A DNA stretch of 33,237 nt from a virus. Its lineage: Duplodnaviria; Heunggongvirae; Uroviricota; Caudoviricetes. Numbering within the stretch: the first letter of the stretch is position 1; every line of letters begins with the position of its first letter. The notes below the pieces were generated by a model that saw only the letters and a list, made by a program, of their open reading frames with translations, was not told the origin of the DNA and did no database searches. The stretch lies in the IMG/VR virus record IMGVR_UViG_2609459797_000007, one strand, 5' to 3'. The translations under genes and the position numbers were made by a program. Shown here one piece after another: positions 1-24,240 of the stretch.

Positions 1-981
1 TTAAAGCGATACGCCACCGGCAAGCGGATTTAGTGAGACAGCATTTTGCAGATAGTCTGGCGAAAGATGCGCGTAAACCATCGTTTGCTGAATGCTGGCA
101 TGCCCTAAAATCTGCTGTAACGCGATGATGTTTCCTCCGTTCATCATGAAATGACTTGCGAAGGTATGACGCAGAATATGAGTTGCCTGGTTCGGTGGTA
201 TGTCTGCTTTTACCGCCTTCAGAGTCAGACAAAATTTTTCATAGTCCACTTTAAACAGTTTCGCGCTTGCCTCCTTTTTGATGAGCTTTTCCAGTTCGGC
301 AGAAATTGGAACAGTACGCTTTTTCCCGTTTTTGGTCTTCAGGAACGTCACACGGCAATTGACGATCTGCGAGGGCTTTAATGTTGCCAGTTCAGACCAT
401 CGCGCGCCGGTGCTGACTCCCAGAAGGGCAATCAATCTTGCATCGCCGGTTAATGCATTTAGCAAACTGCTGATTTCTTCCTTTTCCAGAAATGTCATTT
501 CTGGGTTTTCTTCAGTCAGTGGTGGCAATCCATGCACTGGATGGGTGCCGAAAAACTCTTCCAACTGAATCAACTTGGTGAACATGCCTGAAAAACGGTA
601 CATATCACGGTTAATTGTTGATGCCTTGATACCGTCACGAAGTCGCATAGAACGGTAGTCCATCAGAAGCCGTTTGCTCACGCGGCTAACGGGTATGTCA
701 CCGATGCCGCCGATCGTCTTCGTGAGGTGGTTAAATTCCTTCTCACCGTGTTCATGGTTTTGACCGTGATACTTCCACCAGGCATCCAGTAATTCAGATA
801 GAGATCTGCGATCTGTTCTCTGGCCCGCCCATTCTTTCTGATTAGCGTTCGCTAATGTGTAGCGCTCAAAGGCAACTGCTTCAGCTTTTCTTTCAAATTT
901 CCGGCGGATGCGACGTCCTTCACGCCCGCGGGGTCTGATATCCACTTCATAACGCCCATCATCGAGTCTTTTGATAGTCAT
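1..981 (-). CDS. int: Phage integrase, tyrosine recombinase (P2 Int-like)
   Basis: 326-aa ORF with the tyrosine-recombinase pattern: ARWSEL (Arg), HILRHTFAS (H-x-x-R) and VYAHL (catalytic Tyr) in the C-terminal third. Leftmost prophage gene; its stop codon is at the window edge. Confidence 0.9.
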   Translation of the reverse strand: MTIKRLDDGRYEVDIRPRGREGRRIRRKFERKAEAVAFERYTLANANQKEWAGQRTDRRSLSELLDAWWKYHGQNHEHGEKEFNHLTKTIGGIGDIPVSRVSKRLLMDYRSMRLRDGIKASTINRDMYRFSGMFTKLIQLEEFFGTHPVHGLPPLTEENPEMTFLEKEEISSLLNALTGDARLIALLGVSTGARWSELATLKPSQIVNCRVTFLKTKNGKKRTVPISAELEKLIKKEASAKLFKVDYEKFCLTLKAVKADIPPNQATHILRHTFASHFMMNGGNIIALQQILGHASIQQTMVYAHLSPDYLQNAVSLNPLAGGVSL

Positions 982-1123
982 AAGACCCTCCGAATAGAGC
1001 TTTCAAACTTGCCCGGATTAGTAGTTACTGTCCGAGGTTTCTTACTAACTTCGTTGTAACGCCTGAAATTATATTTCCTTACAAGTAAACAACTTATGTA
1101 ATAAATATAGGCCCGGTTAATCG

Positions 1124-1417
1124 TCAGCCAGTTTTGCGGCCTGAGGGTGACGAGGTTGTTTCGTCTTGCCCAGAGTGTGCGACGACCGGGGATATTTGCC
1201 CGGCTTCTGGTGCTGTGTCGTCAGTCATAATCCAAAGTGTGTACTTCTTGAATTGTGGGGCGTTAACGATCTGCTTCACAATCTGAAGGCCTGGTTCTTT
1301 ATGTCCTCCTTCGTAGTTCTTGAGCGAACTTAGTGCCACTCCACTGATTTCACAGAATTTTGCCTGTGTTAGCCCTTCTGCCTTCCGTATTGCCCGGAGC
1401 TTTTCCGATGTTTTCAT
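1124..1417 (-). CDS. C: Immunity repressor C (P2 C-type, short HTH repressor)
   Basis: 97-aa ORF with an N-terminal HTH (LTQAKFCEISGVALSSLKNYE) and a C-terminal QFKKYTLWIMTDD...SGQDETTSSPSGRKTG tail as I recall for P2 C. Position directly upstream of int on the same strand matches P2. Confidence 0.8.
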   Translation of the reverse strand: MKTSEKLRAIRKAEGLTQAKFCEISGVALSSLKNYEGGHKEPGLQIVKQIVNAPQFKKYTLWIMTDDTAPEAGQISPVVAHSGQDETTSSPSGRKTG

Positions 1418-1448
1418 TTGACAAGGTTTCCCCTTGGAGACTATATTT
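1418..1448 (+). promoter_or_regulatory. Candidate sigma70 promoter abutting the C start codon: TTGACA (1418-1423), 17-nt spacer, CTATAT/TATATT
   Basis: Read directly: ttgaca-aggtttccccttggaga-ctatat. Rightward orientation fits an early lytic (Pe-like) promoter facing away from C, or a promoter for a non-coding transcript. Not experimentally defined. Confidence 0.4.
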
Positions 1449-1477
1449 GCCCCAAAAGGTACTCGAAAGGAAACCTT
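1423..1477. promoter_or_regulatory. Perfect 9-bp inverted repeat AAGGTTTCC (1423-1431) / GGAAACCTT (1469-1477) flanking the -10 region; candidate operator
   Basis: Read directly from the sequence. Position immediately upstream of the repressor gene and over a promoter-like element suggests a repressor or Cox binding site. Confidence 0.35.
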
Positions 1478-1713
1478 TTAGGGCGAGAGTCCAGCAGGTC
1501 AGGAACCCTCCTGAGCCGTTTTAAAGCCGCTGGATCTTACAAGGTTAGCATGTAACCAAGTGAGGATGAATGATGCAGGGATATGTTGTTTATGTTGATT
1601 CTGGGGTGGTAGGCGGGGCATTACGCAAGGTCTATTCAGAATGCGGGGTGTTCGTGGGGGTTGTGCGGTATGAGTGAGCCGGTGCAAAACCGGCTCATAT
1701 AGCAGTGGACGAT

Positions 1714-2193
1714 TTAGCGTGGAATACCGACCGTTAACAAAGCAATTAACTTTTCAGGAAAATTAAGATGCTCCCGACTTTCAATTCCCATAGAAATACA
1801 TGCCTTGTTTCGAGCGGGGTTATCCATGCACTCCATTACAATGCTATCGAATTCCTCAATCATAGAGAGACGTGCGGCAATCTCATCCGTACTCAGTTTG
1901 TTAATATCATCAATAAGAGCGGAGTAGCGTTTAGTCTGTTGTTTTGCTGCTTCCGCCCTTTCTCCGAAATGCCAGGCAATGCGGCACCCGCTAAGAATGG
2001 CGATGACTCCACCGAACAACCAACTGAAAGAGCTATTAGCAAACACGGATGCGCCAAGTATCAGCACAAGGGCGTTGAGTACGGTATCAATACGGCGGTT
2101 GAATATTTCGCCTATACGCTCAAGCCAATAGCTATTCCATATCCGAAAAATCAAAGCGGATCGCTTCTGATACTCAGTTGGTTGGGTGTTCAT
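1714..2193 (-). CDS. Hypothetical membrane protein with two predicted TM helices and a ~85-aa soluble C-terminal domain; accessory cargo in the immunity region
   Basis: 159-aa ORF. Two hydrophobic stretches (IDTVLNALVLILGASVFA and FSWLFGGVIAILSGCRIAW) followed by a charged, helical C-terminus. GAGGA Shine-Dalgarno 10 nt upstream of ATG. Sits between C and cox where P2 has no gene. Confidence 0.6.
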   Translation of the reverse strand: MNTQPTEYQKRSALIFRIWNSYWLERIGEIFNRRIDTVLNALVLILGASVFANSSFSWLFGGVIAILSGCRIAWHFGERAEAAKQQTKRYSALIDDINKLSTDEIAARLSMIEEFDSIVMECMDNPARNKACISMGIESREHLNFPEKLIALLTVGIPR

Positions 2194-2199
2194 ATTTAT

Positions 2200-2285
2200 T
2201 TAATCCTCATCATCTTCGCCGCCTTTGCTTTTTTCTGGAGAGGGGGCGGGTTTTCTAGGTACGTGAAATTTATCCGTATCGGACA
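2200..2285 (-). CDS. Hypothetical small acidic peptide (28 aa, MSDTDKFHVPRKPAPSPEKSKGGEDDED), immediately upstream of the 2-TM gene
   Basis: ATG at 2285 preceded by GGAG (GGAGtaaattcATG on the minus strand). Stop lies 6 nt before the 2-TM gene start. The 63-aa version in the ORF track needs a TTG start without a good RBS. Confidence 0.35.
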
Positions 2286-2406
2286 TGAATTTACTCCTTG
2301 TGGTGGTGATGGTTACGCCCGTTCCGGCAAGAACTGAGGGCGTAAAAAATATACCACAAAACCCTGAGCCGGGCAGGGCTTTACCCGGCAACTAACTGGA
2401 GGTTTT

Positions 2407-2679
2407 ATGGAAGCAAATGACTATGTAATTCAGTACCCGCTAGACGCGGTTCATCCTGATAAGTTCGCGGAATTGCTGGGTAAACCACGCACAGCCGTAC
2501 AAACCATGATTGAAAAAAATAAGCTGCCGGTTATTGAGTTTCGTGATCCGTCGAAGCCAAAAGCGCGCGCGGGTGAAAAGCTGGTTTTTGTTCCTGAGTT
2601 CAATCGAGGCGTACGTGAGGCGTTTTATAACCGCCCTGTAGAACAGCGCGATGCCTGGTTGCTCTGGATGGGCCTCTGA
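2407..2679 (+). CDS. cox: Cox-like excisionase and early-switch regulator (P2 Cox family)
   Basis: 90-aa ORF; the motifs KLPVIEF..DPSKPKARAGEKLVFVPEFN...RDAWLLWMGL agree with my memory of P2 Cox (KLPVID...RAGEYWVY...DGWLMWLGL). GGAGG RBS. First rightward early gene, as in P2. Confidence 0.8.
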   Translation: MEANDYVIQYPLDAVHPDKFAELLGKPRTAVQTMIEKNKLPVIEFRDPSKPKARAGEKLVFVPEFNRGVREAFYNRPVEQRDAWLLWMGL

Positions 2680-2699
2680 TAGCTCAAGCGAAGGGATTG

Positions 2700-2885
2700 A
2701 TGATGCTTATCCAAATCAACAGCAAGACAGCAATCTATCGCGGCTTCACCATCGTGAAGCTGCCACGCAAAAAACCATACTCGCGCCAGCGCTACCAAAT
2801 CACTAAAGGCGGGAATTATCTGGGGCTGGACTTCGGTTTGTCTCAGGCCCGCCAGACGATTGATCAGCTTCATCGGGGGAAATAA
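2700..2885 (+). CDS. Hypothetical early protein (61 aa, basic)
   Basis: ORF directly after cox with an AAGGGA RBS. Position corresponds to small early ORFs of P2-like phages. No recognisable motif. Confidence 0.45.
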   Translation: MMLIQINSKTAIYRGFTIVKLPRKKPYSRQRYQITKGGNYLGLDFGLSQARQTIDQLHRGK

Positions 2886-3166
2886 TGACTACTTCAACCG
2901 CAGCAATTCTGAATGCCCGCCAAAGCGTCAACGCTTCCCGGCAGGACGGAACCCGCACACCGTCCCGCAGTGGTTATAGCCCCAGTCATCAGCACAGCAA
3001 GTCGCGTAATGTTGTTCAGGGAATGGCACTGTCTGATATTGCGAGAAATGGTTTTGAGGTGCGATGTAAAGAGACGGGCATTCAATTTTCTATTCTTCCG
3101 GGCGGCTCTATTTGTGACGCCTTCAGTGTTGAATTAGAAAAATACTGGAATAGCGGTGCTCGCTAA
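2885..3166 (+). CDS. Hypothetical early protein (93 aa)
   Basis: ORF whose start overlaps the preceding stop (translational coupling) in the early operon. No recognisable motif. Confidence 0.45.
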   Translation: MTTSTAAILNARQSVNASRQDGTRTPSRSGYSPSHQHSKSRNVVQGMALSDIARNGFEVRCKETGIQFSILPGGSICDAFSVELEKYWNSGAR

Positions 3167-3246
3167 TTAAATAACTGCAATCTGAATCTGTTTATTTACG
3201 GCATTTCTGCCGGGGCTTCGCTTTATCTTTTTTCAGGAGGTTGATT

Positions 3247-3414
3247 ATGACAATTCAAACAAATGAACGCGCGCACCTGCTTGGGTTGTTACGTATCAAA
3301 TTGACCTTACTGAAAAAAGAAAAGCTGTCCACCAATGAAATTTATCGCAGCCTGGAAGACTGGATCTACAACAGAGAAAAGGCCGCAGAAATCAAGGAGC
3401 AAAAAAATGGTTAA
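3247..3414 (+). CDS. Hypothetical small protein (55 aa, MTIQTNERAHLLGLLRIKLTLLKKEKLSTNEIYRSLEDWIYNREKAAEIKEQKNG)
   Basis: Not in the supplied ORF track (below size cutoff). ATG at 3247 with an AGGAGG RBS 7 nt upstream. Its 3' end overlaps the methyltransferase start. Confidence 0.4.
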   Translation: MTIQTNERAHLLGLLRIKLTLLKKEKLSTNEIYRSLEDWIYNREKAAEIKEQKNG

Positions 3415-4390
3415 TTCCCCTCTGATCTGGGCGGGCGGCAAGTCTCGCGCGATGCCTCATGTACTGGAGGCTTTGCCAAAGGGTGAATGTCTCGTTGAGC
3501 CTTTTGTAGGTAGTGGTAGTGTCTTTCTGAACACTGACTATAAAACCTATATTCTGTGTGATAGCAACGCAGCGCTTATGAACTTCTATTCAATATTGAA
3601 GAGCAATACTAAATCGTTGCTAGATGTCGCTGCTACTCTATTTGATGGCGGTAATAATGAAGATGCATATTATAAACGCCGCAATGAATTTAATGATTTT
3701 AATCGTGGTTTTCCCCAGCATAATAAAAAAACTTCTGATGGAAAGGTTTATTATCAGAGTGAACTTGTAAAGTTTGCAGCATTATTCCTTTATCTAAACC
3801 GTCATTGCTATAACGGTTTATACCGAGTGAATGGGAAGAATGAATTTAACGTTCCATTTGGTCGTCGCCGCAAGCCAATTTTCCCTGTTGCAGAGATCCA
3901 GCACTTTGCAAAACGAGCATATGAGAAAGGTGCTCAGTTTCTTTGCGCTGATTTCCGTTACACCATCCCTGTTGCTAGTCGCATATTTGAGCGCACAGTA
4001 ATTTACTGTGATCCGCCTTACCTGCCAGCGAGTAAAACGGCTGATTTTACCGCGTACGGCAAACCCTTCACTGTCGATGATCACCGTGACCTGGTTGAGT
4101 CATTGATTACCGCTCATAACAACGAAGGATGCCTGTCTGTTTTTTCCGGTAGCGATACCCCGGAAACCCGCAAAATTTACTACCCGTTCACCCTTAATTC
4201 ATTCGAAATCCGCCGATCTGTAGGGGCCAAATCTCGCAACTTGGCTGGCGAGGTGATCGGCTCTCTACGCGTTTGTGGTTGTTGTGGGCGTACTGGCGGC
4301 GGTTGTCCTGATTGCGGTGCTGTGATGGGTGATGCGACCTATTCAGAAATGGTTGCCTCTGGTGCTTTTGATGATCAGGAGGTGTTCTGA
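3407..4390 (+). CDS. dam: DNA N6-adenine methyltransferase (Dam-like, alpha-class order FxGxG then DPPY) with a Cys-rich C-terminal tail
   Basis: Motif I (VEPFVGSGSVF) and motif IV (VIYCDPPYLPASK) in Dam order. Start taken at ATG 3407 (AAGGAG RBS); the track's upstream start at 3335 lacks an RBS. C-terminal CGCCGRTGGGCPDCG looks like a zinc ribbon. Confidence 0.8.
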   Translation: MVNSPLIWAGGKSRAMPHVLEALPKGECLVEPFVGSGSVFLNTDYKTYILCDSNAALMNFYSILKSNTKSLLDVAATLFDGGNNEDAYYKRRNEFNDFNRGFPQHNKKTSDGKVYYQSELVKFAALFLYLNRHCYNGLYRVNGKNEFNVPFGRRRKPIFPVAEIQHFAKRAYEKGAQFLCADFRYTIPVASRIFERTVIYCDPPYLPASKTADFTAYGKPFTVDDHRDLVESLITAHNNEGCLSVFSGSDTPETRKIYYPFTLNSFEIRRSVGAKSRNLAGEVIGSLRVCGCCGRTGGGCPDCGAVMGDATYSEMVASGAFDDQEVF

Positions 4391-4563
4391 TGAATCCCGT
4401 TGAGGTCGTTGTGACAAAGGTGCTGGATGTGCTCCCGCGCCGTAATTACTGGATAACTCGTGTTGAGGTTCTGGGCGAGGGGGGTTACAGCAATACAGAT
4501 CTGATCACCTATTCAGAACGTGACGCCAGAGCAATACAGCCAGGCGACACGGTTTCCATCTAA
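4390..4563 (+). CDS. Hypothetical small protein (57 aa), translationally coupled to the methyltransferase (TGATG overlap)
   Basis: Not in the ORF track. ATG overlaps the Dam stop codon. Lies between dam and the replication gene. Confidence 0.35.
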   Translation: MNPVEVVVTKVLDVLPRRNYWITRVEVLGEGGYSNTDLITYSERDARAIQPGDTVSI

Positions 4564-4572
4564 GGCGGATTG

Positions 4573-7011
4573 ATGACTTCAGTTCGCCGCGCCCATAGCA
4601 TGACCTCCATGCCGGGAGGCTCGGTTGAGCCAGCCCGGTATGCTTACGCCTGGAATGAGCCTAAACAGGCCATTTCCGTCGATAAGACTCCCGCTGTTGA
4701 CCTATATGAATTGGGTCAAGAGCAGGAGTTTTTCGCATGGGTAGAAGATACCCTCAAGCCGTTACCTTCTTTCATTCGCCGCCGCATTGCTTTTTACATA
4801 AATACCGTTCACGAAGATAAAGGGCGTCATATCGCAAAACTGAAGCTGCGCGATATCGTTAAGCGCGAGCTTCCACACGTCCGTAACGTCACGAATCAAT
4901 ACGCAGTACCAGAAGACAATGATTGGATTATTTTCTCTGAACTAAACCCACTATTTCACACGTTTGAAAATCTGCGTGAGCTAGCGCACCGCTTTAATAA
5001 TCTGGCTGATAGTACCGATGAAGATATTGATTTGTTGGCACAGGACATTGCTATTTATGCCAATGCCGTTTTGGCTGAAGTGAGTGAAGGCGCGAGCGTG
5101 TTTAGTGATGCTGAGTACGGCAAACGCATGGTGCGTGAAGGCTCTAGACTAATTGCGTATTTCAGGTTGGTGGCACCTTGGGCTAAGAAGCGCCGGATGG
5201 CGCCTGATGAAGCGGCGGCGGCAATACAAAAAACCATGCACGATCGCTTTTGGTCACGCCTTCTGCGCAAGTACGCCCGCCGCTGGCGTGAGCATTTGCA
5301 CATTGCTTATGGTGATGTGCGCCGCGATGTTTCACCGTATTGCAGTAAACACCACGTTACACAGTGGGATTCCCGCCGTAAGCGTAGTCGCGAAATTATG
5401 AGCCGTCTTGAACTTGAAGATCAGGTAACTGGCGAGCGCATTTCGCTGATAGAGCAGATTGATAAAAGTATTTCTAACCCTGAAAAGCGCCGCGTTGAGT
5501 TGATGACGCGCATTGGTGGCTTTGAGAAAGTGGCAACAGAAAGCGGTTTTGCCGGTAGTTTCTTCACGTTGACCGCACCGTCTAAATATCATGCTTTTAC
5601 AGCATTCGGGCATCGTAACCATAAATGGAACGGAGCAAGCCCACGCAAAACACAGAACTACCTTAATCACGTCTGGCAACTGATCCGCGCGGAGCTTGCG
5701 CGCCGTGAGATTCCTGTTTTTGGCCTTCGCGTTGCTGAATCTCACCATGATGCTACTCCGCATTGGCATGGCCTTCTGTTCACTGCCCCAGAACATACCG
5801 GCGAGTTGTTGGAAGTGATGGAAGACTACGCCACACGTGAGGATGCAGACGAGCTAACCGGCAAGACTGGCAAGCAACCGCGCTTTGAGCTTAAGCCAAT
5901 AGATCCGGCTTTGGGGAGTGCTACTGGCTATGTTGTTAAGTACATATCTAAAAATATTGATGGCTACGCGCTGGATGGTGAAAGCGACGACGAAAGCGGA
6001 CGTCCACTGAAGGAAACAGCAAAACACGCTACCGCCTGGGCTTCATGCTGGGGCATTCGTCAGTTTCAGTTTTTGGGTGGTGCGCCGGTGTCTGTCTGGC
6101 GCGAGTTGCGCCGCCTGAAGAATCAGGAAATGGCAGATCGTATCAGTCCGGTTTTCGGTGAGTTACATCGCGCCGCACATGCGGGGAACTGGCAGGACTA
6201 CATTACCTTGCAGGGTGGCCCGTTCGTGGCACGGAATAGGCTTGTGTTGCGCGCATGGTATCAGTACCGGGATGAGCCGAGCAGTTACGGCGAGTTTCAG
6301 AGAGTCATTAAAGGCGTAGTCATGCCAGCATCGACTATTCCTCCGGTTGAAACCCGTCTCCATTCTTATCGTATTGTCAAAATGAAGCCAAAAGCAGACG
6401 ACGACGCTGGTCGAGGTTTTGACCTTAAGGGCGCGCCCGCGCCCTCTTGGACTCGTGTCAATAACTGTACCGAGTACAAAAAACAAACAGATTCACCGCC
6501 TGTTTATCCGACAGATCTGACTGTGCCAGATACTGATGCACTCCCTGAACAATTTGAAATTGGTCAATTGAGCCGAGATCAGAGAAAACAAATTGCGGTG
6601 GACCTCAGAAATCACAAACCAAATCAGCGTGTTTCACCTGCTGATCAGTTTGAGGCGCTCGCTTTCAGCATCACTACCGGTGACTGTACCGACTATGACC
6701 GGGTTAGGGCAGAAAGTTATCTGAAAGCAGCACATGCAATCCGGCAGGAAGAAAGCACGGTGAGCGAGAATGTTGCTGCACTTGCTGAAAAGATAATGAG
6801 TTGGGCAAGGTTAAGAAAAATTAAGATTAACCCTGTGCAGGCGCTGAAACTAGCAAGGGGTGAGGAGGTTACAGCGCTCGATACGATTTACCGAGCCAAC
6901 CTAATCACTGGGGAACTTATTGTGACTGGCGTGGACATGCATTGGCGTAAAACTCTTGCAAGACATCAGACAGAGGATCTAACCCTCCGTTGGAGGAAAG
7001 CAATAGGTTAA
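4573..7011 (+). CDS. A: Replication initiation protein A (rolling-circle HUH endonuclease, P2 gpA family)
   Basis: About 812-aa ORF. HUH motif ATPHWHGLLFTAP and paired tyrosines in GYVVKYISKN (Y-x-x-x-Y). Size and position match P2 gene A. The ATG at 4573 is preferred over the TTG at 4570. Confidence 0.85.
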   Translation: MTSVRRAHSMTSMPGGSVEPARYAYAWNEPKQAISVDKTPAVDLYELGQEQEFFAWVEDTLKPLPSFIRRRIAFYINTVHEDKGRHIAKLKLRDIVKRELPHVRNVTNQYAVPEDNDWIIFSELNPLFHTFENLRELAHRFNNLADSTDEDIDLLAQDIAIYANAVLAEVSEGASVFSDAEYGKRMVREGSRLIAYFRLVAPWAKKRRMAPDEAAAAIQKTMHDRFWSRLLRKYARRWREHLHIAYGDVRRDVSPYCSKHHVTQWDSRRKRSREIMSRLELEDQVTGERISLIEQIDKSISNPEKRRVELMTRIGGFEKVATESGFAGSFFTLTAPSKYHAFTAFGHRNHKWNGASPRKTQNYLNHVWQLIRAELARREIPVFGLRVAESHHDATPHWHGLLFTAPEHTGELLEVMEDYATREDADELTGKTGKQPRFELKPIDPALGSATGYVVKYISKNIDGYALDGESDDESGRPLKETAKHATAWASCWGIRQFQFLGGAPVSVWRELRRLKNQEMADRISPVFGELHRAAHAGNWQDYITLQGGPFVARNRLVLRAWYQYRDEPSSYGEFQRVIKGVVMPASTIPPVETRLHSYRIVKMKPKADDDAGRGFDLKGAPAPSWTRVNNCTEYKKQTDSPPVYPTDLTVPDTDALPEQFEIGQLSRDQRKQIAVDLRNHKPNQRVSPADQFEALAFSITTGDCTDYDRVRAESYLKAAHAIRQEESTVSENVAALAEKIMSWARLRKIKINPVQALKLARGEEVTALDTIYRANLITGELIVTGVDMHWRKTLARHQTEDLTLRWRKAIG

Positions 7012-7300
7012 ACGTCAAATATCATTTTCGTCGTCTATGTTGCTATCATCACAAGCTAGATTGAGGTGAAATGATGGTAATTGAAGGCCAGCTTTATGGG
7101 GGTAGTCCAAGCCCAAGCAAAGGGGCATTTAGAAAGAAATGCTTATATTCTGTCAATTATTGTTTTTGATCTTGGAATATTAGTGGGCTTAATTTACAGT
7201 GGGAAAAATATCACTTAACCTTGAAGCAAATATTTTACAGGTTTGGGTTTTAAAAATTTTTCTTTCAAAATAGTTGAAAAATTGGACAGCAATGAAACAT

Positions 7301-7332
7301 GTTGGTAGAAATAAGCCGTTGATTTTACGGCT
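7301..7332. terminator. Hairpin AAATAAGCCGT-tgatttt-ACGGCTTATTT with flanking T/A runs; candidate bidirectional terminator between gene A and the accessory island
   Basis: Perfect 11-bp stem read directly, followed by TTTTG on the + strand. About 40 nt downstream of the island's last gene on the - strand. Confidence 0.45.
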
Positions 7333-7372
7333 TATTTTTGAACACAATCACTATAGAGAACTTATGTCAGAA

Positions 7373-8170
7373 TTAGTCATCTAATGCTCCATCAAAATAG
7401 ATCTTTAATGCATTAAATAATTCTTGATAATGATTGCTATTGAAATCACCAGCTTCCCAAAGTTTGTACTTATCCTTAATGGTGTTTTTTGCAAATCCCT
7501 CTTTAAGGGTTTTGTTTACCACGCCACTTTTATCAAGAGGCTTATGATAAACGTCAACATAGAAGCATCTTACATCAAAATTCGCCCCTGTTGGCTTTAT
7601 TACATTAATATCAGAATAGTAGCAATTGTCTTTAACATGTTGATACGATGAAATATTTAAATGACCTAAAAGAGGTAAGACATCTTTAATATTTCCTTGG
7701 GTCGTGCAATATGCTGTCCACTCTTGTTTATACAAATATTTCAGCCAGTTATTGAAAAGTGTATTAGATTTATCTTTTTGGTAATATATGATCAGGCCGC
7801 CACTATTATCTCTTTTTATATATCGTGTTAATAGTTGTAATAAACCTTCAAAAATTTTCTGGTATCCATAACCAATTTTAGCTTCTGCAATCCAAACAAA
7901 TTCACCACCATTAGTTTTAGTGGTGACAGTTATATCAACACTGCCATTCTTTTTTGTTTGTTCGGTAGCCCGATAACCAAAATGTCCCAGTGATGTTACT
8001 ATTGTATGGCTGAGTTTATCCTCATCATCACAATAGTATTTATCACTTGATGACTCCATGGTTTTTATTATTTCTTCGATATCTTTGAAAAGTTGATTAT
8101 GAAAATCACTTTCAGTTATAAAGTAATCACGACGAACGAGATTAGTAGCAAGTGAATTAGTGTTCATCAT
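7373..8170 (-). CDS. Hypothetical protein (265 aa) with a PD-(D/E)xK-like motif; third gene of the accessory island
   Basis: AT-rich ORF. GSVDITV followed 16 residues later by EFVWIAEAKIG (hydrophobic strand then E-x-K), the classic restriction-endonuclease-fold signature. Start overlaps the upstream gene's stop. Confidence 0.6.
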   Translation of the reverse strand: MMNTNSLATNLVRRDYFITESDFHNQLFKDIEEIIKTMESSSDKYYCDDEDKLSHTIVTSLGHFGYRATEQTKKNGSVDITVTTKTNGGEFVWIAEAKIGYGYQKIFEGLLQLLTRYIKRDNSGGLIIYYQKDKSNTLFNNWLKYLYKQEWTAYCTTQGNIKDVLPLLGHLNISSYQHVKDNCYYSDINVIKPTGANFDVRCFYVDVYHKPLDKSGVVNKTLKEGFAKNTIKDKYKLWEAGDFNSNHYQELFNALKIYFDGALDD

Positions 8171-8597
8171 AATTCACCAGGCAATAAAAACTGAGATATT
8201 TTGGGTCGAAATCTTCAATTTCAACACCATTGTCATTCACCGGAACTTCATTATTAGTCATGAAGTTATTGTACTCGTCCTGATGAATGTCAATTCGTTC
8301 ATTATCAACCATCTCATAACAATATTTGATCTCAAATAAATTAGAATTGCCACCACTAAAAAAGCGGACAATTTCCAATAAGTCGGATGTTTTTTTTGCT
8401 TGAGTAGCAATTTGTAAAGTATGAATAGTATAAATATCAAGCTCAATATTATCAGCAATATAATTTAGTAGGTTGTGATAGTTCTGCAATTTACTCGGTT
8501 TAAAAAAAACCGAGTTTTTGCATAGTTCATCAACCAACTCATGTTGCTTTAAAATAATGGGCAACATTTTTTTATACCGTTCTGCTAAGGATGTCAT
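8157..8597 (-). CDS. Hypothetical protein (146 aa, acidic); second gene of the accessory island
   Basis: ORF overlapping both neighbours (26 nt upstream, 14 nt downstream), consistent with a translationally coupled operon. GGGGTGA RBS 5 nt before the ATG. No recognisable motif. Confidence 0.55.
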   Translation of the reverse strand: MTSLAERYKKMLPIILKQHELVDELCKNSVFFKPSKLQNYHNLLNYIADNIELDIYTIHTLQIATQAKKTSDLLEIVRFFSGGNSNLFEIKYCYEMVDNERIDIHQDEYNNFMTNNEVPVNDNGVEIEDFDPKYLSFYCLVNYDEH

Positions 8598-9651
8598 TTA
8601 TCACCCCATAGTGTGAAACAGTGTCGGCCATTTTATTAAAATAAAAAGCACCACAGAATTGATTGTTTGCCCAGTCATTTTTATTAGGTTCAAATCCTAT
8701 TTCATTCGATAACGATTCTGAACCAATTTTATAATCAAAACGAGCAGAAACACCACATACCTTCAAATTGGATATAGTTGAAGTTGAAGTATTGCCTTTA
8801 TTCGTCTCAACCACTTTTCTGTTTCTGGCGTCATAACTAGGTTTCGTTCTACATTTAAGGCTAGCATCCTCATCACCAACAGGATCGACGAAATCTACCT
8901 GCACTAATCGGCCAAAGGAAGCATCGTTGTATATATTATTAATTGCTTTATAAAAATTGACAGTTTCTAAATTTAAAGAAACATTGTTTTCAGACAAAAA
9001 CTCTAAAAACTTAATTCTTAAATCAGTAATTGCTCGTTCGAAAACGCGACGACCAAGTTTACGATCAACCCTATATTCAACACGACTTAAGTCATTAGGA
9101 ATGAAAACTGTATTGAAAAATTGAACAGGGTATTGGTTTGAGCGTAATTTACTTCTCCCACTGATTTTCTTAATTAACACATAAGAAAAGATAATTGCTA
9201 CACCATCTCCCATGTTTTCGACAGAAGTAATGAAATGCCCTGGTGAAGCAGGTAGTCCACTATCTTCATCAAGCTTCATAGGGAATGCATCACGAAAACA
9301 TTTTTCATAATTAGAATAATTAGCAAACTGAGAAATAGCTTTAAGGTTTCCACCTCGAATAAAATCAATAGCATAGTAATGATTTACAGAGGTTATTATT
9401 TTTAGCAATAATAATTTGAGAGACGCCTCAGTTGCAAGCTTATGAGCCATTCCAGGATTAGAAAGCGTTCGTATGATACTGTCTTTAGTTCCTGCCCATC
9501 GGGTTCCGATCTGGAATCCATAAGGTGTTCCTACGCGACGAAAAAATCCTAATTCTTCAGTTTGCTCAAGAGAAGTAAGAATCTTTTCAACTTCTTTTTG
9601 GTTAAATGTAGGCGCAGATTGGGTGGCTCCAAGCGCAGTTTGAGTAGTCAT
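8572..9651 (-). CDS. Hypothetical protein (359 aa); first gene of the accessory island
   Basis: Long AT-rich ORF with no P-loop, no HUH and no TIR-like pattern that I can see. Sits between A and cos, where P2 carries tin/old. Confidence 0.6.
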   Translation of the reverse strand: MTTQTALGATQSAPTFNQKEVEKILTSLEQTEELGFFRRVGTPYGFQIGTRWAGTKDSIIRTLSNPGMAHKLATEASLKLLLLKIITSVNHYYAIDFIRGGNLKAISQFANYSNYEKCFRDAFPMKLDEDSGLPASPGHFITSVENMGDGVAIIFSYVLIKKISGRSKLRSNQYPVQFFNTVFIPNDLSRVEYRVDRKLGRRVFERAITDLRIKFLEFLSENNVSLNLETVNFYKAINNIYNDASFGRLVQVDFVDPVGDEDASLKCRTKPSYDARNRKVVETNKGNTSTSTISNLKVCGVSARFDYKIGSESLSNEIGFEPNKNDWANNQFCGAFYFNKMADTVSHYGVINDILSRTV

Positions 9652-9905
9652 TTATTCTTCATTCCATTGCTGAGGCAAGTTAAGTCTGTTTAGTTTACCC
9701 AAGCGTTGATTTTATACAACAAAACATGCAGCGTTTAAGCAAGAGATATTAGTGTTTTTTGACATTTTCTACATATTTTCAACTGCACAAGCGTGCACAA
9801 AAACGCACAATAAACAGGGTTTTATTTTTGATGGATCTCCGCAGGATCTGCGCTGGTTAGCAGCGGATCTGCAAGTGCACAAAAACAGGCGTGTTTGTTG
9901 CGCGC

Positions 9906-9924
9906 AGGTGACGGGGGGAAAGCC
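9906..9924. other. cos site, candidate cohesive-end sequence GGTGACGGGGGGAAAGCCC (P2/186 cos-like)
   Basis: G-rich 19-mer resembling the P2 cohesive end as I recall it (GGCGAGGCGGGGAAAGCAC). Lies immediately upstream of the Q-P packaging genes as in P2. Flanked by repeated GTGCACAAAAAC motifs near 9790 and 9872. Confidence 0.5.
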
Positions 9925-10110
9925 CGCGCGGCGGGGGGGGAAGGGGTATACCTCAAATATAGGGAAATTGGCGCAATTCTGGCGCGCTGCTGCGTTCTGT
10001 GTGTTGTGTGCGGGTAATGGCGTGTTTAGATTATGGGGCGCTTAGAATGGCGCTGGCGTGCCGTGTATTGATGTGATGCGGAGAGCGCCGCCGGGATGGC
10101 GGCGGGTTGG

Positions 10111-11172
10111 TTATTTCATGGTTTCCAGCAGGGCGTAAGGTTTAAAGCGGATCACTTCTTCCCCCAGCCAGTCGTTGACGTGCTTCAGCGCTTCCATTGC
10201 TGGCATTAGTTCGTTGATGGCAAACACGCGCGCGGCCTTCTCCACATCACCGAATGAGCCGTTGCCGTCCGGCATGGCCCCCATCAGTTGCGGTGGTACG
10301 CGGTGAGCCGCCAGAATGTCATCGCGTGTCGCTGATTTAATATTTAAAAACTCATCCTTTGCTGATATCTGGCTGAAGGGCATCAGTTGTACCCCGTCTT
10401 TACCGCCGCCTGGCGCGTGGATCACTACGTTCTTAAATGCCCCTTTGTTTCTGGCTCCCGCCAGTGTTTGCTGTATGACTTTTACGCCAGCGTCGTCCAC
10501 CTGTGATGTGCCGATATACAGAATGCATCCGGCATGAGATCCGTTTTCGTAATACATCTTGCGGAACATGTCCGCCGAGTGTGACAGGCTGGCTGACAAT
10601 AGCGCGCCCATGTACTCCGGCATCCCGTAGATCTCCTGATGAATGTCAGGGTTCAACACATGGCAGACAGAGCCGGTTTTAAAAGCTGATTCGTCTTTCC
10701 ACTGCCTGATAAACCAGTATGTATCCAGGTCAATGCCACGCCGGGTGTATTTCGCCGGGGAATGGCGGAGCGGTAGCAGCCCGCCTAGTCGGTTATTTCG
10801 TTCTTCCAGGTAGAAGTTGCCAAACACAAACCAGTCAAGCGCCAGGGCGGAGAACGTCTGGCGAGACAGTAGCGGGTGTGGGATGAAGAAACCCGCCAGC
10901 GCGTTGCGCTTGAAGTACAGCGCTGACTGGTGCCAGGACGCCTTGCCGAATGAGCGCGCAAGCCCGTACCAGTCCACCGGTGTTTCGTAATATCTGCCGT
11001 TATCGGCGCAATACATATTGTCGAGCAGGTCGTAAGCGTCAGCGACCTGGTATGGCCCATCAAAGGTGAAAGCGCTAAGGGCTGGATCGCGCTTCAGTGC
11101 TTCACCAATATCATGTTGCTGTGTACCGTCAGTAAGCATAGTCAGGCCGCTTTCGTGTGTTGTTGTGTTCAT
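10111..11172 (-). CDS. Q: Portal (capsid vertex) protein, P2 gpQ family
   Basis: About 353-aa ORF next to cos and downstream of the terminase ATPase; its ATG overlaps the P stop (TAATG). Size and synteny match P2 Q. The track's longer start at 11253 overlaps P and is unlikely. Confidence 0.8.
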   Translation of the reverse strand: MNTTTHESGLTMLTDGTQQHDIGEALKRDPALSAFTFDGPYQVADAYDLLDNMYCADNGRYYETPVDWYGLARSFGKASWHQSALYFKRNALAGFFIPHPLLSRQTFSALALDWFVFGNFYLEERNNRLGGLLPLRHSPAKYTRRGIDLDTYWFIRQWKDESAFKTGSVCHVLNPDIHQEIYGMPEYMGALLSASLSHSADMFRKMYYENGSHAGCILYIGTSQVDDAGVKVIQQTLAGARNKGAFKNVVIHAPGGGKDGVQLMPFSQISAKDEFLNIKSATRDDILAAHRVPPQLMGAMPDGNGSFGDVEKAARVFAINELMPAMEALKHVNDWLGEEVIRFKPYALLETMK

Positions 11173-12896
11173 TAAAACTCTCTTACGGAACCGCCGCCGC
11201 TGCCGTTCTCGCGTCCAAGTGGCTCGTTGATGATTGCCAGCATATTTGCCCAAGCTAAGTCGCCATGACTGACGCCGCGCGCGCGATCGGTGTCATAGGT
11301 AATTTGTCCACCGGCGGTGGTGATTTTCCTGACGGCGTTGAATGCTGACACTAACGCCTGTTCACTACGGTCATACTCCCAGCGGCCCGCGCGGATCACC
11401 TGCTGCATTTTGAGTACCAGAGTGCGCTTTGATGACAGCGACATGATGAAACAGACCGCCGCCGGGAAGAATTTCTTGACCAGTTGCCAGACCGCTTCAC
11501 CAATGCCGGTACCGTCAATTGCGATGTGCCGGACGTTGTATTTAATGGTCAGGTCTTCGATCACTTTGGCCTGTTCTTCAAACTCCATCCCGCGTAGCTG
11601 GCGCGTCTCTATCGTGCGGAACTTGCCGCCACTGACCAGGGGAGGGGTAACCACGGAAACAGCGCCGCTGTCACCGTTGCCACTGCCGCCGTTGGCGTCG
11701 TAGCCTATCCAGACTTCACGATCGCCAAGCGGGCGGGGGGCGTAGGGTTTCCAGTCCTGCCAGTCGTCGTAGCCGTCCGCGCCGCACGTCAGTAGCTGAT
11801 TAAGTGAGAAAACGGATTCGCCTTCTTTGACGAACTCACACATGTACAGGTTGGTGTATTCATCCGGGGTATTTTCGTCCTGAATTTCTTCCAGATCGGT
11901 GAACTCCCAGCCGTGGTCGATCACGTCCTTCAGGGTGACAATCTGCCGCCAGGTTTTGTCCGGGCACAACAGGCCGCTGTTGAGTGTCTTCCAGCTTGTG
12001 TCGAAGTCTACCCGGCTGGATTTGGCCCGCTTCTCATTCCAGCGCTTGCCCGTCCAGAACGGGTAGGCTTCATGGTTTTCGCTCGATGGCGTTGAAAAGT
12101 AAGTGCGCGTAAGCCCTTTCAGGGTTGCCATAGCTCCAGCTACTTTGCGAAGGTTTGCAAAGTTACCTACCCAGAAAAACTCATCAAAAAACAGGTTGCC
12201 GGTGTAGCTCTGCGCGGTAGCGGCAGACGTGCCGAGAAAATGCAATTCAGCGCCGTTCGACAATAGAATTTTGTCACCGCCTTTTAGTTCTACGTCTACC
12301 TCTTCGGCAATCTTCTGGATGAAGCCACGGAACTGGTGCGCCTGGCGACGCGACGCTGATAGAAAAATCTGGTTGCGCTGATATCCGTGCTTAATGTCAT
12401 CTCGCAGCGCCTGTAATAGTGCCTCGCGGGCAAAGTACCAGGTTGCGCCAATCTGGCGGCTTTTCAGGATCATGCGGTTTCGTTGCTGGCGCTGTTCAAA
12501 CCATCCCTGCTGATGCCAGGCCAGAGAGTCCTGAATCTTTTCCCGTAGCGCGGCGATCTGCGCTTCGGTGAAGTGGTTTTTCTTCTTGCTCGCGCGCGCC
12601 TTCTTGAAGGGTTGCGCCGGTTGCCCTTCTGCCAGTTTCTTCACCTGGCGCGTGAGCGCGTCGATTTCTTTCAGATCGCTGCCGGTCTTCGTTGGTTTCA
12701 TCGCGATTTGGCATAACCGGGCATCAATAGATTGCGTGACGCGCTGAATTGCGGGCGTTTCGTCCCATTCGTCGCGTTTCTTCCACGAATAAACCGTGTT
12801 TGAACTGATACCCATCAGGCGTGAAATCTCTGCTGGCGGGTAGCCCTGCCAGTAAAGCTGCTTTGCTCTCTGTCTTACAAATGCGTCCTGGATCAT
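11172..12896 (-). CDS. P: Terminase large (ATPase) subunit, P2 gpP family
   Basis: Roughly 575-600-aa ORF divergent from O. Start taken at the internal Met (12896) because the track's start at 12980 would run through the late-promoter dyad. Synteny with P2 P. Confidence 0.8.
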   Translation of the reverse strand: MIQDAFVRQRAKQLYWQGYPPAEISRLMGISSNTVYSWKKRDEWDETPAIQRVTQSIDARLCQIAMKPTKTGSDLKEIDALTRQVKKLAEGQPAQPFKKARASKKKNHFTEAQIAALREKIQDSLAWHQQGWFEQRQQRNRMILKSRQIGATWYFAREALLQALRDDIKHGYQRNQIFLSASRRQAHQFRGFIQKIAEEVDVELKGGDKILLSNGAELHFLGTSAATAQSYTGNLFFDEFFWVGNFANLRKVAGAMATLKGLTRTYFSTPSSENHEAYPFWTGKRWNEKRAKSSRVDFDTSWKTLNSGLLCPDKTWRQIVTLKDVIDHGWEFTDLEEIQDENTPDEYTNLYMCEFVKEGESVFSLNQLLTCGADGYDDWQDWKPYAPRPLGDREVWIGYDANGGSGNGDSGAVSVVTPPLVSGGKFRTIETRQLRGMEFEEQAKVIEDLTIKYNVRHIAIDGTGIGEAVWQLVKKFFPAAVCFIMSLSSKRTLVLKMQQVIRAGRWEYDRSEQALVSAFNAVRKITTAGGQITYDTDRARGVSHGDLAWANMLAIINEPLGRENGSGGGSVREF

Positions 12897-20917: not shown

Positions 20918-21524
20918 CAGTCTGTTGCCACCTTCAGCCAGTGATTTTATGCGCGGTGCAGAGGCCGCAACATGGCGCGTGAGTGGTTTACCCGTAGGCC
21001 TGAAAACGTTGTGGAACCCTGATGAATGCCCGGTTGCTTTACTGCCTTATCTGGCTTGGGCGTTATCGGTTGATCGCTGGGATAAAGGCTGGTCAGAACA
21101 GACAAAGCGACAGGTGATTAAATCCGCCTGGCTGGTACACAGGCAAAAGGGAACTATCGCGGCGCTGCGCCGTGTCGTTGAGCCGTTCGGCTTCCTGATA
21201 AAGGTCGTTGAATGGTGGCAGAACGGAGGCGAGCGGGGAACATTTCAACTTGAAATTGGTGTTTCTGATTCAGGGATTACAGAAGAAACCTATCTCGAGC
21301 TTGAGCGTCTGATCGCTGATGCAAAACCATGCTCACGGCACCTGACCGGCCTTGCTATCAGTCTGCAGACTAAGGGGGCAGCATATGCGCATGCCGGATG
21401 TTATAGCGGCGACGTGATGACAATTTTTCCCTATATGCCTGAAGCCGTAGAAGTCAGTGGCGGGGATTTTTCAGGTGGCGCAATTCACATTATTGATACG
21501 TTAGAGGTAACAAATGGCGGCTAA
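20910..21524 (+). CDS. I: Baseplate/tail protein I
   Basis: About 204-aa ORF; its ATG at 20910 overlaps the J stop; synteny. Confidence 0.8.
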   Translation: MNNSLLPPSASDFMRGAEAATWRVSGLPVGLKTLWNPDECPVALLPYLAWALSVDRWDKGWSEQTKRQVIKSAWLVHRQKGTIAALRRVVEPFGFLIKVVEWWQNGGERGTFQLEIGVSDSGITEETYLELERLIADAKPCSRHLTGLAISLQTKGAAYAHAGCYSGDVMTIFPYMPEAVEVSGGDFSGGAIHIIDTLEVTNGG

Positions 21525-22824
21525 ATTCTTTGCCCTGCTGACTAATCAGGGGGCGGCAAAATTATCAAATATGGCTGCATTGGGTGAGAAGTTAGAAATC
21601 ACCTCGCTCGCAGTTGGTGATGGCGGCGGTACATCACCAACACCAAATCAGGCACAGACAAGGCTGGTTAATGAGGTACGCCGTGCCCAGATTAACTCAC
21701 TGTCAGTGGACGAAAAAAACGATAGTCAGATTATTGCTGAACAGATTATTCCTGAATCCGTTGGCGGGTGGTGGATTCGGGAGATCGGACTCTTTGACGC
21801 TGATGGCATCTTGATTGCTGTAGCCAACTGCCCGGAAACCTATAAAGCGACAACAGAGGAAGGGTCGGGGCGTACACAGGTTATCAGAATGATGCTGACG
21901 GTATCGAGTACAGACGCCGTTACCCTTAAAGTTGATCCTTCAATTGTGCTGGCAACCCGCCAGTATGTTGATAACGCTGTCATTGAAGTGAAGAACTACG
22001 CTGATGGACTCATGCGCAGCCACGAACAGTCGCGCAACCATCCTGATGCAACCACTACGGCTAAAGGTTTTACGCAGCTTAACAGCAGTGTGACGGATGA
22101 CCGCGATACACAATCGGCAACCCCGAAAGCCGTAAAAATTGCGATGGATAACGCGAATGCGCGGTTGGCTAAAGATCGCAATCTCGCCGATTTACCTAAC
22201 CCGGCACTGGCGCGCCAGAATATGCAATTAGGTGATAGCTCGACGAAAAACACCGGTACAACTGCCAATACTGTTGCAGCGGGTGATGATGCACGTATCA
22301 CCGGATCGATGCAGAAAAGCCAAAACGGTGCGGATATTCCAGACGTGGCGAAGTTTCTCCAAAACCTTCGTTTAGGAGCGGGCGCTCCGCCGATAGGAAT
22401 TCCGTTCTTCTGGCCGTCGACTGCAATGCCTAATACGGTTATGGATGAGTGGTCGGATATGGTCTTTTTGAAATGGAATGGCGCAACCTTCTCAGCGACT
22501 GAATACCCTAAACTGGCAAGGATTATTCCAGGACTGAAATTAAATGATGTGCGAGGCGAGTTCCTGCGTATTTGGGATGATGGAAGGGGCGTAGATAACG
22601 GAAGGGGGTTACTCAGCTTTCAGGCAGCAACATCTTTCACACAGTATGCTGGTAACTATGACGTAGGCTCCGGTCATGCAATAGGTAATCATGATGGTGT
22701 AGTCGATTACAGTCCTGGATTTTCCAGATTTCCTTATCCCGGCCCAGCTATTGGTGATGGTGTTAACCATGTAACCGTAAGACCACGTAACATCGCATTT
22801 AACTTTTTAGTAAGGGCTAAATAA
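21514..22824 (+). CDS. H: Tail fibre protein H: constant N-terminal part fused to the currently expressed variable C-terminus
   Basis: 436-aa ORF following I. A recombination site lies inside it (22348-22371), so the C-terminal ~150 aa are part of an invertible segment. Confidence 0.85.
   Translation: MAAKFFALLTNQGAAKLSNMAALGEKLEITSLAVGDGGGTSPTPNQAQTRLVNEVRRAQINSLSVDEKNDSQIIAEQIIPESVGGWWIREIGLFDADGILIAVANCPETYKATTEEGSGRTQVIRMMLTVSSTDAVTLKVDPSIVLATRQYVDNAVIEVKNYADGLMRSHEQSRNHPDATTTAKGFTQLNSSVTDDRDTQSATPKAVKIAMDNANARLAKDRNLADLPNPALARQNMQLGDSSTKNTGTTANTVAAGDDARITGSMQKSQNGADIPDVAKFLQNLRLGAGAPPIGIPFFWPSTAMPNTVMDEWSDMVFLKWNGATFSATEYPKLARIIPGLKLNDVRGEFLRIWDDGRGVDNGRGLLSFQAATSFTQYAGNYDVGSGHAIGNHDGVVDYSPGFSRFPYPGPAIGDGVNHVTVRPRNIAFNFLVRAK
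22348..22371. repeat. Left inversion crossover site (hix/gix-like): TTCTCCAAAACC-TT-CGTTTAGGAG
   Basis: Quasi-palindromic 24-26 bp site inside H; matches the right site at 24161-24185 with a complementary central dinucleotide. Confidence 0.65.
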
Positions 22825-23417
22825 TGACAGTCATTTTCGATAAAGACGGGCTGGCTGTTGAAGCCGGAAGTATTCGTGTTTATTACTTTCATCCTGTGAC
22901 AAAGGAATATGTAGGATGGTCTGACGAATTCATTAATATCGGAGTGAGTATGCCAGGTAACTCTACTAATATTGCTCCGGGGAATGAAGTGGCAGGAGAG
23001 GTTATGGTATTTACAGGAAAAGACTGGAAGCGACAAAAAGACCACCGGGGGGAGACTGTCTGGTCTACTGATGACGGTAGCGCCATCACCGTGAACTACA
23101 TTGGCTCTGTTCATGATGGATACACTAATATTGCGCCATCCACCCCCTACGATAAGTGGGACGGGGAAAAGTGGGTAACGGATACCAAAGCCCAGCACGC
23201 GGCAGATAAAGAAGTAGCAAAACAACAACAGCAATCTCTGATAGATTCAGCAATGGCATCAATCGGCATGATACAGCTTAAATTACAGGCAGGGCGTAAA
23301 TTAACCACTGCTGAAACTACGAGGCTAAATTCTGTTCTGGACTACATTGACGCGGTGGAGGCAACTGATACCAGCACCGCGCCAGATATTAAGTGGCCTC
23401 TTCCCCCGGAGTGGTAG
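22824..23417 (+). CDS. G: Tail fibre assembly (chaperone) protein G, active orientation
   Basis: 197-aa ORF immediately after H; its 3' end converges and overlaps with the alternative chaperone gene on the other strand, as in Mu-type G segments. Confidence 0.8.
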   Translation: MTVIFDKDGLAVEAGSIRVYYFHPVTKEYVGWSDEFINIGVSMPGNSTNIAPGNEVAGEVMVFTGKDWKRQKDHRGETVWSTDDGSAITVNYIGSVHDGYTNIAPSTPYDKWDGEKWVTDTKAQHAADKEVAKQQQQSLIDSAMASIGMIQLKLQAGRKLTTAETTRLNSVLDYIDAVEATDTSTAPDIKWPLPPEW

Positions 23418-23814
23418 GCCAAACGGGTTTTTCGGTATCGACTCGCATCAGTAATACCCTGTATTTTTTCCATTCTGACAAAGCGGCGGTTTCTTCTTCC
23501 GTCGCTACTCCTGCATCAACAGCATCCTGACGCCAGTTAATCTCTGAGTCAGCCCGCATACGTAAGTTGGCCTTTCTTAATTCAGCGACAGCGCTAAGTT
23601 CTTCCTGAGTTGGTGGTGGAATATCTACCCATGCTGGCATTCCTGCTATTACATTTCTGTATTTACCTTCGGGTGGCTCCTGCATGAATTCAGTTGCAAC
23701 AGAGTCTTCTATTTCTATTCCATCGTTTGGCCACTCTCCTGCCTTTTGATAGGACGACTTCAGCTCTACAGGAAAGAAAGCATTTTTCTTGGCACTGAAT
23801 ACATATTTTTGCAT
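23389..23814 (-). CDS. Alternative tail fibre assembly protein (G'), silent orientation within the invertible segment
   Basis: 141-aa ORF on the opposite strand; its start follows the stop of the alternative fibre C-terminus (23816). Confidence 0.7.
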   Translation of the reverse strand: MQKYVFSAKKNAFFPVELKSSYQKAGEWPNDGIEIEDSVATEFMQEPPEGKYRNVIAGMPAWVDIPPPTQEELSAVAELRKANLRMRADSEINWRQDAVDAGVATEEETAALSEWKKYRVLLMRVDTEKPVWPTTPGEEAT

Positions 23815-23815
23815 G

Positions 23816-24172
23816 TTAACGTCCTATAGAAATATAACTAAATCGGTATTGCTGAGAATTGTCACTCGTTGATACACGCCATGACGAATTGCTGATATGT
23901 TCAAAATTTACAGAAAGTACAGGCGTAATCGGTCCAGAAGGATTTGACTGGACGGCATCAGACATGACGCTGATAGAAATCAAGGGTTGAGTCGGAAACG
24001 GTATAGGGAAGTTACCGCTGATAAAACGAGTCGTGTTTCCTGAATATGTACCAAACTGCACAATGTGCCCGCTTGGTAATTTGAACCACCCTGTGCCAGA
24101 TGCAAAAGCGCCCATATCCGGTATCTGATTTGCACCTGTCCCCACCTCTCTTTTTGCTGCTTCTTTCAAACC
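23816..24172 (-). CDS. Alternative tail fibre C-terminal cassette (H'), promoterless and start-less, expressed only after inversion
   Basis: Open frame from the right recombination site down to a stop at 23816, encoding ...GANQIPDMGAFASGTGWFKLPSGHIVQFGTYSGNTTRF.... The junction sequence parallels the H junction (FLQN versus FLNV). Confidence 0.65.
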   Translation of the reverse strand, partial: GLKEAAKREVGTGANQIPDMGAFASGTGWFKLPSGHIVQFGTYSGNTTRFISGNFPIPFPTQPLISISVMSDAVQSNPSGPITPVLSVNFEHISNSSWRVSTSDNSQQYRFSYISIGR

Positions 24173-24185
24173 AACGTTTAAGAAA
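24161..24185. repeat. Right inversion crossover site (hix/gix-like): TTCTTTCAAACC-AA-CGTTTAAGAAA
   Basis: Resembles hixL (TTCTTGAAAACCAAGGTTTTTGATAA) as I recall it. Located about 55 bp upstream of the invertase start codon. Confidence 0.65.
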
Positions 24186-24240
24186 ATGCAGATTTGCACC
24201 CTGGCTGGCATCATTCCGGCTTTTGCATGAGGGAAAGCAA

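Follow-up and report, generated by a model that had tools for sequence, protein, structure and literature searches.

The 33,237-nucleotide (nt) stretch of DNA analysed here (IMG/VR virus record IMGVR_UViG_2609459797_000007, Caudoviricetes; hereafter the window) is a P2-like prophage that carries an island of three genes, named g1, g2 and g3, between the replication gene gpA and the portal gene gpQ. We give an about even chance to the reading that the three products form a nuclease-based anti-phage (superinfection-exclusion) cassette at this gpA–gpQ hotspot, in which g1 is the subunit that binds DNA and has no catalytic role. The genes overlap on the same strand, and g1 is the first and largest gene of the operon, as the initial annotation of this DNA had stated. 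The open reading frame (ORF) calls were as follows.

8572–9651, minus strand: g1, 359 residues, ATG start
8157–8597, minus strand: g2, 146 residues (136 from the ATG at 8567)
7373–8170, minus strand: g3, 265 residues

The overlap is 26 nt between g1 and g2, or none with the g2 start at 8567, and 14 nt between g2 and g3. The start of g2 is ambiguous: the longest ORF begins at 8597, and most database homologues begin at the ATG corresponding to 8567, just past the g1 stop codon.

Homologues of g1 were found in 23 clusters from Enterobacterales in a database of 5.8 billion proteins, and a profile search of 1.84 billion proteins gave 27 representatives. When g1 was compared with its homologues the synonymous sites were saturated (proportion of synonymous differences, pS, 0.68–0.80; proportion of non-synonymous differences, pN, 0.20–0.37), with a dN/dS of approximately 0.08–0.29 where this was computable. 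g1 is a real gene, because the homologues are conserved and non-synonymous change is suppressed relative to the saturated synonymous change. No match to g1 was obtained in Pfam, NCBIfam or PADLOC at E ≤ 1, no sequence match was present in the PDB and no Walker A motif or P-loop was found in the protein. Searching 23 family members against Pfam at E ≤ 10 returned noise only (weak FF, Clathrin-link and similar matches), and the sole weak family match of g1 was to phrog_12777, of unknown function (4e-5). By every available test g1 is non-enzymatic, which bears out the earlier remark that it has no recognisable enzymatic motif. The protein is basic overall, with a pI of approximately 8.8–9.0, and no transmembrane segment was detected in g1, g2 or g3, the maximum 19-residue hydropathy being 1.25, 0.54 and 0.37, respectively.

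The predicted structure of g1 consists of an N-terminal four-helix extension (residues ~18–88) followed by alpha/beta domains spanning residues ~91–221 and ~226–359. In the model this fold is that of the RdgC/RexA/Iml3-Chl4 group, the top match being RdgC, whose two-domain centre and base fold is present in the predicted g1 structure. The remote-homology and structural searches that the initial annotation had proposed thus gave a fold match to RdgC and RexA and no sequence homology. The sensor idea had been held to be at odds with homology to a protein of phage replication or morphogenesis; none was seen at the sequence level, and the nearest approach to it is that the fold resembles that of a recombination-associated protein, which counts as homology only in a weak sense. 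As RdgC is a DNA binder, the sensor idea acquires a definite structural footing from that resemblance.

RdgC is a ring-shaped homodimer with a basic pore of ~30 Å that binds double-stranded DNA non-specifically. The structurally resolved proteins of E. coli and P. aeruginosa (PDB 2OWL, 2OWY; PF04381) are recombination-associated and nucleoid-associated, and share no detectable sequence homology with g1. Several differences separate them from g1. In its predicted structure g1 carries ~90 additional N-terminal residues folded as a helical domain, and a long tip or finger domain is not obvious. Whereas g1 is basic overall, RdgC is an acidic protein whose pore is basic (PMC1885664). RdgC is also encoded by a stand-alone chromosomal gene, which in E. 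coli is monocistronic and lies between ykiD and mak, while g1 opens a mobile cassette of three genes, one of them for a predicted nuclease. RexA of the RexAB system (PDB 8TWQ) is, like the predicted g1, an RdgC-fold protein encoded by a temperate phage, and no sequence similarity between the two was found. Its partner RexB is a polytopic inner-membrane effector, whereas the partners of g1 are a small acidic protein and a predicted soluble nuclease. Those members of the RdgC/RexA/Iml3-Chl4 group that have been characterised bind DNA; in lambda Rex exclusion, RexA acts as the sensing component.

Alignment of 28 homologues of g3 revealed invariant residues at E50, D79, E96-A-K98, Q112 and R116. 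The leading structural matches were the type II restriction endonucleases BamHI, OkrAI, BstYI and BglII, with McrC also matched. At the family level g3 matched phrog_9664 and the PADLOC candidate PDC-S54; sub-threshold matches to PDDEXK_9 (in several members) and to Mrr_cat were also seen (hmmscan, E ≤ 10). Because of these invariant residues and fold and family matches, g3 is predicted to be a nuclease of the PD-(D/E)xK restriction-endonuclease fold with an intact D...E-x-K catalytic motif, and is the putative effector of the cassette. The intervening g2 is strongly acidic (pI 4.6–4.7), its net charge of about −11 to −12 being concentrated in the C-terminal third, and contains an invariant C-terminal motif, G-x-EIEDF-x-P-x-YL-x-FYCL. 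No Pfam or PDB match to g2 was obtained and no relatives were detected outside the cassette.

At every one of the ~30 loci examined the homologues of g1, g2 and g3 were adjacent, tightly packed and in the same order, with g2 always between g1 and g3. The trio was found at 18 of 18 distinct P2-like gpQ/gpA hotspots that were retrieved, in Escherichia, Serratia, Rahnella and viral contigs, and also in elements of very different type: a Vinavirales (PM2-like) prophage of Vibrio cyclitrophicus, beside the integrase; an integrative element of Shewanella that encodes an integrase and a GPA-like replicase; a Pseudoalteromonas islet near a degraded integrase; and a prophage of a Pantoea megaplasmid, after the tail-fibre genes and next to a RelE/ParE toxin–antitoxin (TA) pair. 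In metagenomic islands it abuts Septu (PtuA 1e-139, PtuB 4e-76) and a PD-T4-6-like kinase, and in others a type I HsdR with a Schlafen-like gene, or a resolvase; one contig bears ParAB. No methyltransferase adjoined the trio at any locus checked. Among P2-like loci the cassette can exceed the flanking core genes in similarity (at locus L002, 56% for g1 against 33% for gpA), which is how accessory defence cargo behaves when it is exchanged horizontally. At remote loci g3 holds 32–39% identity to the window protein, whereas g1 falls to 22–33% over a shrinking alignable span, and this faster divergence of g1 is as expected for a recognition subunit. Taken together, the P2 hotspot, the Septu and type I restriction–modification (RM) neighbours and the mobility across element types suggest a role in defence.

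In V. vulnificus and other Vibrio loci the trio directly follows an inovirus (Rep_trans ... Zot), and may be carried or mobilised with it. At loci L022 and L034/L035 (coordinates 104–5531, then 6001–8846) it lies immediately downstream of the filamentous prophage, and the middle gene, uncalled in the source annotation, is nonetheless present (hidden Markov model (HMM) E 1e-12). A metagenomic integrative element (L028; 3164–4603 and 8482–10591) holds a distant trio flanked on one side by a PD-T4-6/mad6-like Ser/Thr kinase and on the other by a complete Septu pair, adjoining umuDC-like genes and an integrase, and forms a compact defence island. In Stx1a-converting lambdoid phages the trio sits between Q and stx1AB, antisense to both. 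The copy in Stx1_499 (LC567825.1 13614–15721; L036 2493–4600) is divergent, with proteins of 350, 130 and 221 residues that matched the g1, g2 and g3 families with HMM E values of 2e-10, 3e-8 and 1e-35 and hhalign probabilities of 92, 76 and 99.6%. These 2.1 kilobases recur with ≥99% identity in 23 genomes among the 5,426 complete ones of E. coli; several O145 Shiga toxin-producing E. coli (STEC) are among the examples listed, and all Stx1 copies are annotated as hypothetical proteins. The P2-borne trio is rare in the same genomes, with two variants in 0–2 of the 5,426 when searched as near-identical DNA; the island DNA of the window itself was in none of them, and E. coli drafts hold proteins 99–100% identical to g1 and g3.

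The same family had been catalogued at the same locus. System #145 of the 169 in Table S5B of Rousset et al. (2022), labelled 'DUF5939 | DpnII-MboI' and counted at 14 of 18,150 E. coli P2 loci, consists of the P0013-type homologues of g2, g1 and g3 from E. coli, which are 56, 45 and 58% identical to the proteins of the window. Neither label was reproduced when all members of the three families were searched with hmmscan at E ≤ 10, and the names 'DUF5939' and 'PDC-S54' were not met in the literature searched. Nothing was returned for g1 or g2 by PADLOC (2023 release), all RefSeq copies are annotated as hypothetical proteins, and no pairing of a nuclease with an RdgC-like or RexA-like protein was found in the literature searches. 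Rousset et al. (2022) validated Rst_3HP, a three-gene 'hp+hp+hp' system of this P2 hotspot, which resembles the trio in being prophage-borne and in having three genes without annotated domains. Its proteins are of 337, 356 and 227 residues compared with 359, 146 and 265 for the trio, and identity between the two systems was rejected on these sizes and on hhalign probabilities below 1% in 9 of 9 pairings. A short motif in residues 69–78 of Hp3 of Rst_3HP (ERIEYRTT) resembles residues 188–197 of g1 (SRVEYRVD), its most conserved strand, and this likeness is probably due to chance (hhalign probability 0.6%). Lamassu (LmuA nuclease, LmuC and LmuB, which resembles structural maintenance of chromosomes (SMC) proteins) and Hachiman (HamA nuclease with HamB helicase) also contain a nuclease; in the trio the proposed sensor would instead have the RdgC fold, and no ATPase, SMC or helicase component was found by the P-loop check or in Pfam, PADLOC and NCBIfam. 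The cassette is best described as uncharacterised and outside any named defence family, of the sensor-plus-nuclease kind with a Rex-like sensor fold.

A mechanism can be proposed in which g1, a basic protein with the predicted two-domain RdgC/RexA fold and an N-terminal helical domain, would, as RdgC and RexA do, dimerise as a ring or horseshoe and hold DNA of any sequence against a basic inner surface. It would thereby recognise incoming phage DNA, or an intermediate of phage replication or recombination. The acidic g2 might serve as adaptor or inhibitor, perhaps mimicking DNA and thereby occupying g1 or g3, and would silence the nuclease until g1 engages its DNA ligand. The predicted PD-(D/E)xK nuclease g3, acting as effector, would then be released or recruited to cut DNA, halting the infection directly or via cell death. 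As in lambda RexAB, a temperate phage would carry a sensor of the RdgC fold, but here the output would be a soluble nuclease in place of a membrane channel. The original suggestion that g1 is a sensing component is partly supported, by the RdgC/RexA fold, the co-inherited nuclease and the faster divergence; dimerisation, DNA binding, sensing itself, the contacts between partners, the role of g2 and a defence phenotype are what we infer.

Several observations weigh against this mechanism. The likeness of g1 to RdgC and RexA is at the level of the fold only, with an hhalign probability of 0.2%, and the RdgC profile PF04381 was matched neither by g1 (E ≤ 1) nor by the 23 family members (E ≤ 10). 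The same fold also mediates protein–protein contacts, as in adaptin appendages and Mediator. DNA binding by RexA is reported, in the abstract of PMC11077077, to be not strictly required for exclusion. The sequences of system #145 appear only in the hotspot catalogue (Table S5B) and not in the tables of tested systems of Rousset et al.

Other arrangements of the same three proteins were considered. The trio might be a constitutive restriction-like complex in which g1, as a clamp or target-recognition subunit, loads g3 on foreign (modified or unmethylated) DNA in the manner of Type IV/McrBC enzymes without a nucleoside triphosphatase. The structural matches of g3 to BamHI, BstYI, BglII and McrC speak for this, as do the 'DpnII-MboI' part of the HHpred label given to the homologous system by Rousset et al. 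and the orphan D12 (Dam-class) methyltransferase at 3335–4390 in the window; in most contexts the trio is without a methyltransferase, as is the case for modification-dependent enzymes. We regard this arrangement as unlikely. It is very unlikely that g1 simply acts as RdgC does, coating DNA, blocking RecA or phage recombinases and inhibiting recombination-dependent replication or modulating induction, with neither a sensing role nor a nuclease partner. RdgC is the strongest fold match, a fold search of BFVD with g1 gave low template-modelling-score matches only, some of them phage-encoded and labelled RdgC-like, and RexA is described as independently biasing the lambda switch via DNA binding. 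However, a stand-alone role of this kind is disfavoured because g1 is strictly linked to g2 and g3, without which it was never found across the ~30 loci; the accessory hotspot location, the absence from most P2-like phages (14/18,150 E. coli P2 loci) and the lack of sequence similarity to RdgC also count against it.

Even more doubtful is an addiction module of the TA type, with g3 as toxin, g2 as antitoxin and g1 as a DNA-binding autoregulator or chaperone, that keeps mobile elements in the cell. Such a module would account for a nuclease with a small acidic partner, translationally coupled genes and carriage by many unrelated mobile elements, including the ParAB-bearing contig and the megaplasmid prophage beside RelE/ParE. 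Against this, a large gene in first place, a nuclease in last place and strict conservation of three genes are atypical of TA pairs, no TA family was matched in Pfam, PADLOC or NCBIfam, and the sites occupied are classic phage moron or defence sites, although TA and defence roles are not mutually exclusive.

The gpA–gpQ site that holds the operon in the window is the main defence hotspot of P2-like phages (Rousset et al., 2022; Moura de Sousa et al., 2026). The island between gpA and gpQ/gpP has a guanine-plus-cytosine (GC) content of 33.7%, compared with 50% for gpA and 55% for gpQ/gpP. The integrase gene is at 1–981 and is followed by a C-type repressor; beyond gpP are the capsid, tail and tail-fibre genes, with a host cation-efflux gene at the far end of the window. 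The remaining features are given below.

3335–4390, plus strand: D12 methyltransferase (Pfam 3e-51)
4570–7011, plus strand: replication protein gpA
7309–7337, minus strand: terminator-like hairpin with an 11-base-pair stem and a 7-nt loop, 36 nt past the g3 stop codon
9652–10110, minus strand: non-coding leader from gpQ to g1, expected to contain the operon promoter
10111–11253, minus strand: portal gpQ, then terminase gpP
21514–22824, plus strand: tail-fibre gene H
22824–23417, plus strand: tail-fibre assembly gene
23389–23814, minus strand: second Caudo_TAP gene, in the opposite orientation
23816–24532, minus strand: tail-fibre C-terminal fragment

The hairpin at 7309–7337 has a predicted RNA folding energy of −15 kcal/mol (z = −5.07), and 0 of 200 shuffled sequences were equally stable. 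A consensus scan found no minus-strand promoter in the 9652–10110 leader; the best candidate by eye, TTAAAC-16 nt-TATAAA at ~9738–9711, may serve as one. A GC-rich tract (e.g. GGCGGGGGGGGAAGGGG, plus strand) occupies 9860–9990, between the island and gpQ; in P2-like phages this is the location of cos. The tail-fibre region at 21514–24532 has a lower GC content of 46% and looks like an alternative or invertible host-range cassette.

Upstream of gpA the D12-class (Dam-like) enzyme is an orphan N6-adenine DNA methyltransferase without linkage to the trio at other loci. The nearest structural relatives of g3 recognise sites with a GATC core, and for this reason the methyltransferase could matter if the g3 nuclease were methylation-sensitive. 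A PD-(D/E)xK fold with an intact motif, as in the endonuclease of a type II RM system, is predicted for g3, but a classical type II RM system formed with this methyltransferase was rejected because the latter is separated from the trio by gpA and unlinked to it elsewhere.

A broader proposal is put forward tentatively and is, on balance, doubtful: that the trio represents an anti-phage system that is both new and widely mobile. Its RdgC/RexA-fold protein would sense a replication or recombination intermediate of phage DNA, which has long been suspected to trigger lambda Rex, and would relay this via a small acidic adaptor to a restriction-fold nuclease. In that case the divergent trio beside stx1AB would be a module for defence that travels with a toxin locus, and the three 'hypothetical' genes next to stx1 in phages of O145:H28 STEC would likely be functional cargo. 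The presence of the cassette in P2-like, lambdoid Stx1, Vinavirales and inovirus-adjacent elements and in islands makes it a clean example of module shuttling. If the proposed role of g1 is correct, the cassette would represent a defence family in which an RdgC-fold protein binds DNA independently of ATP and works together with a nuclease, and would provide a second, soluble and biochemically tractable system for the decades-old Rex question of what RdgC/RexA-fold proteins recognise in infection.
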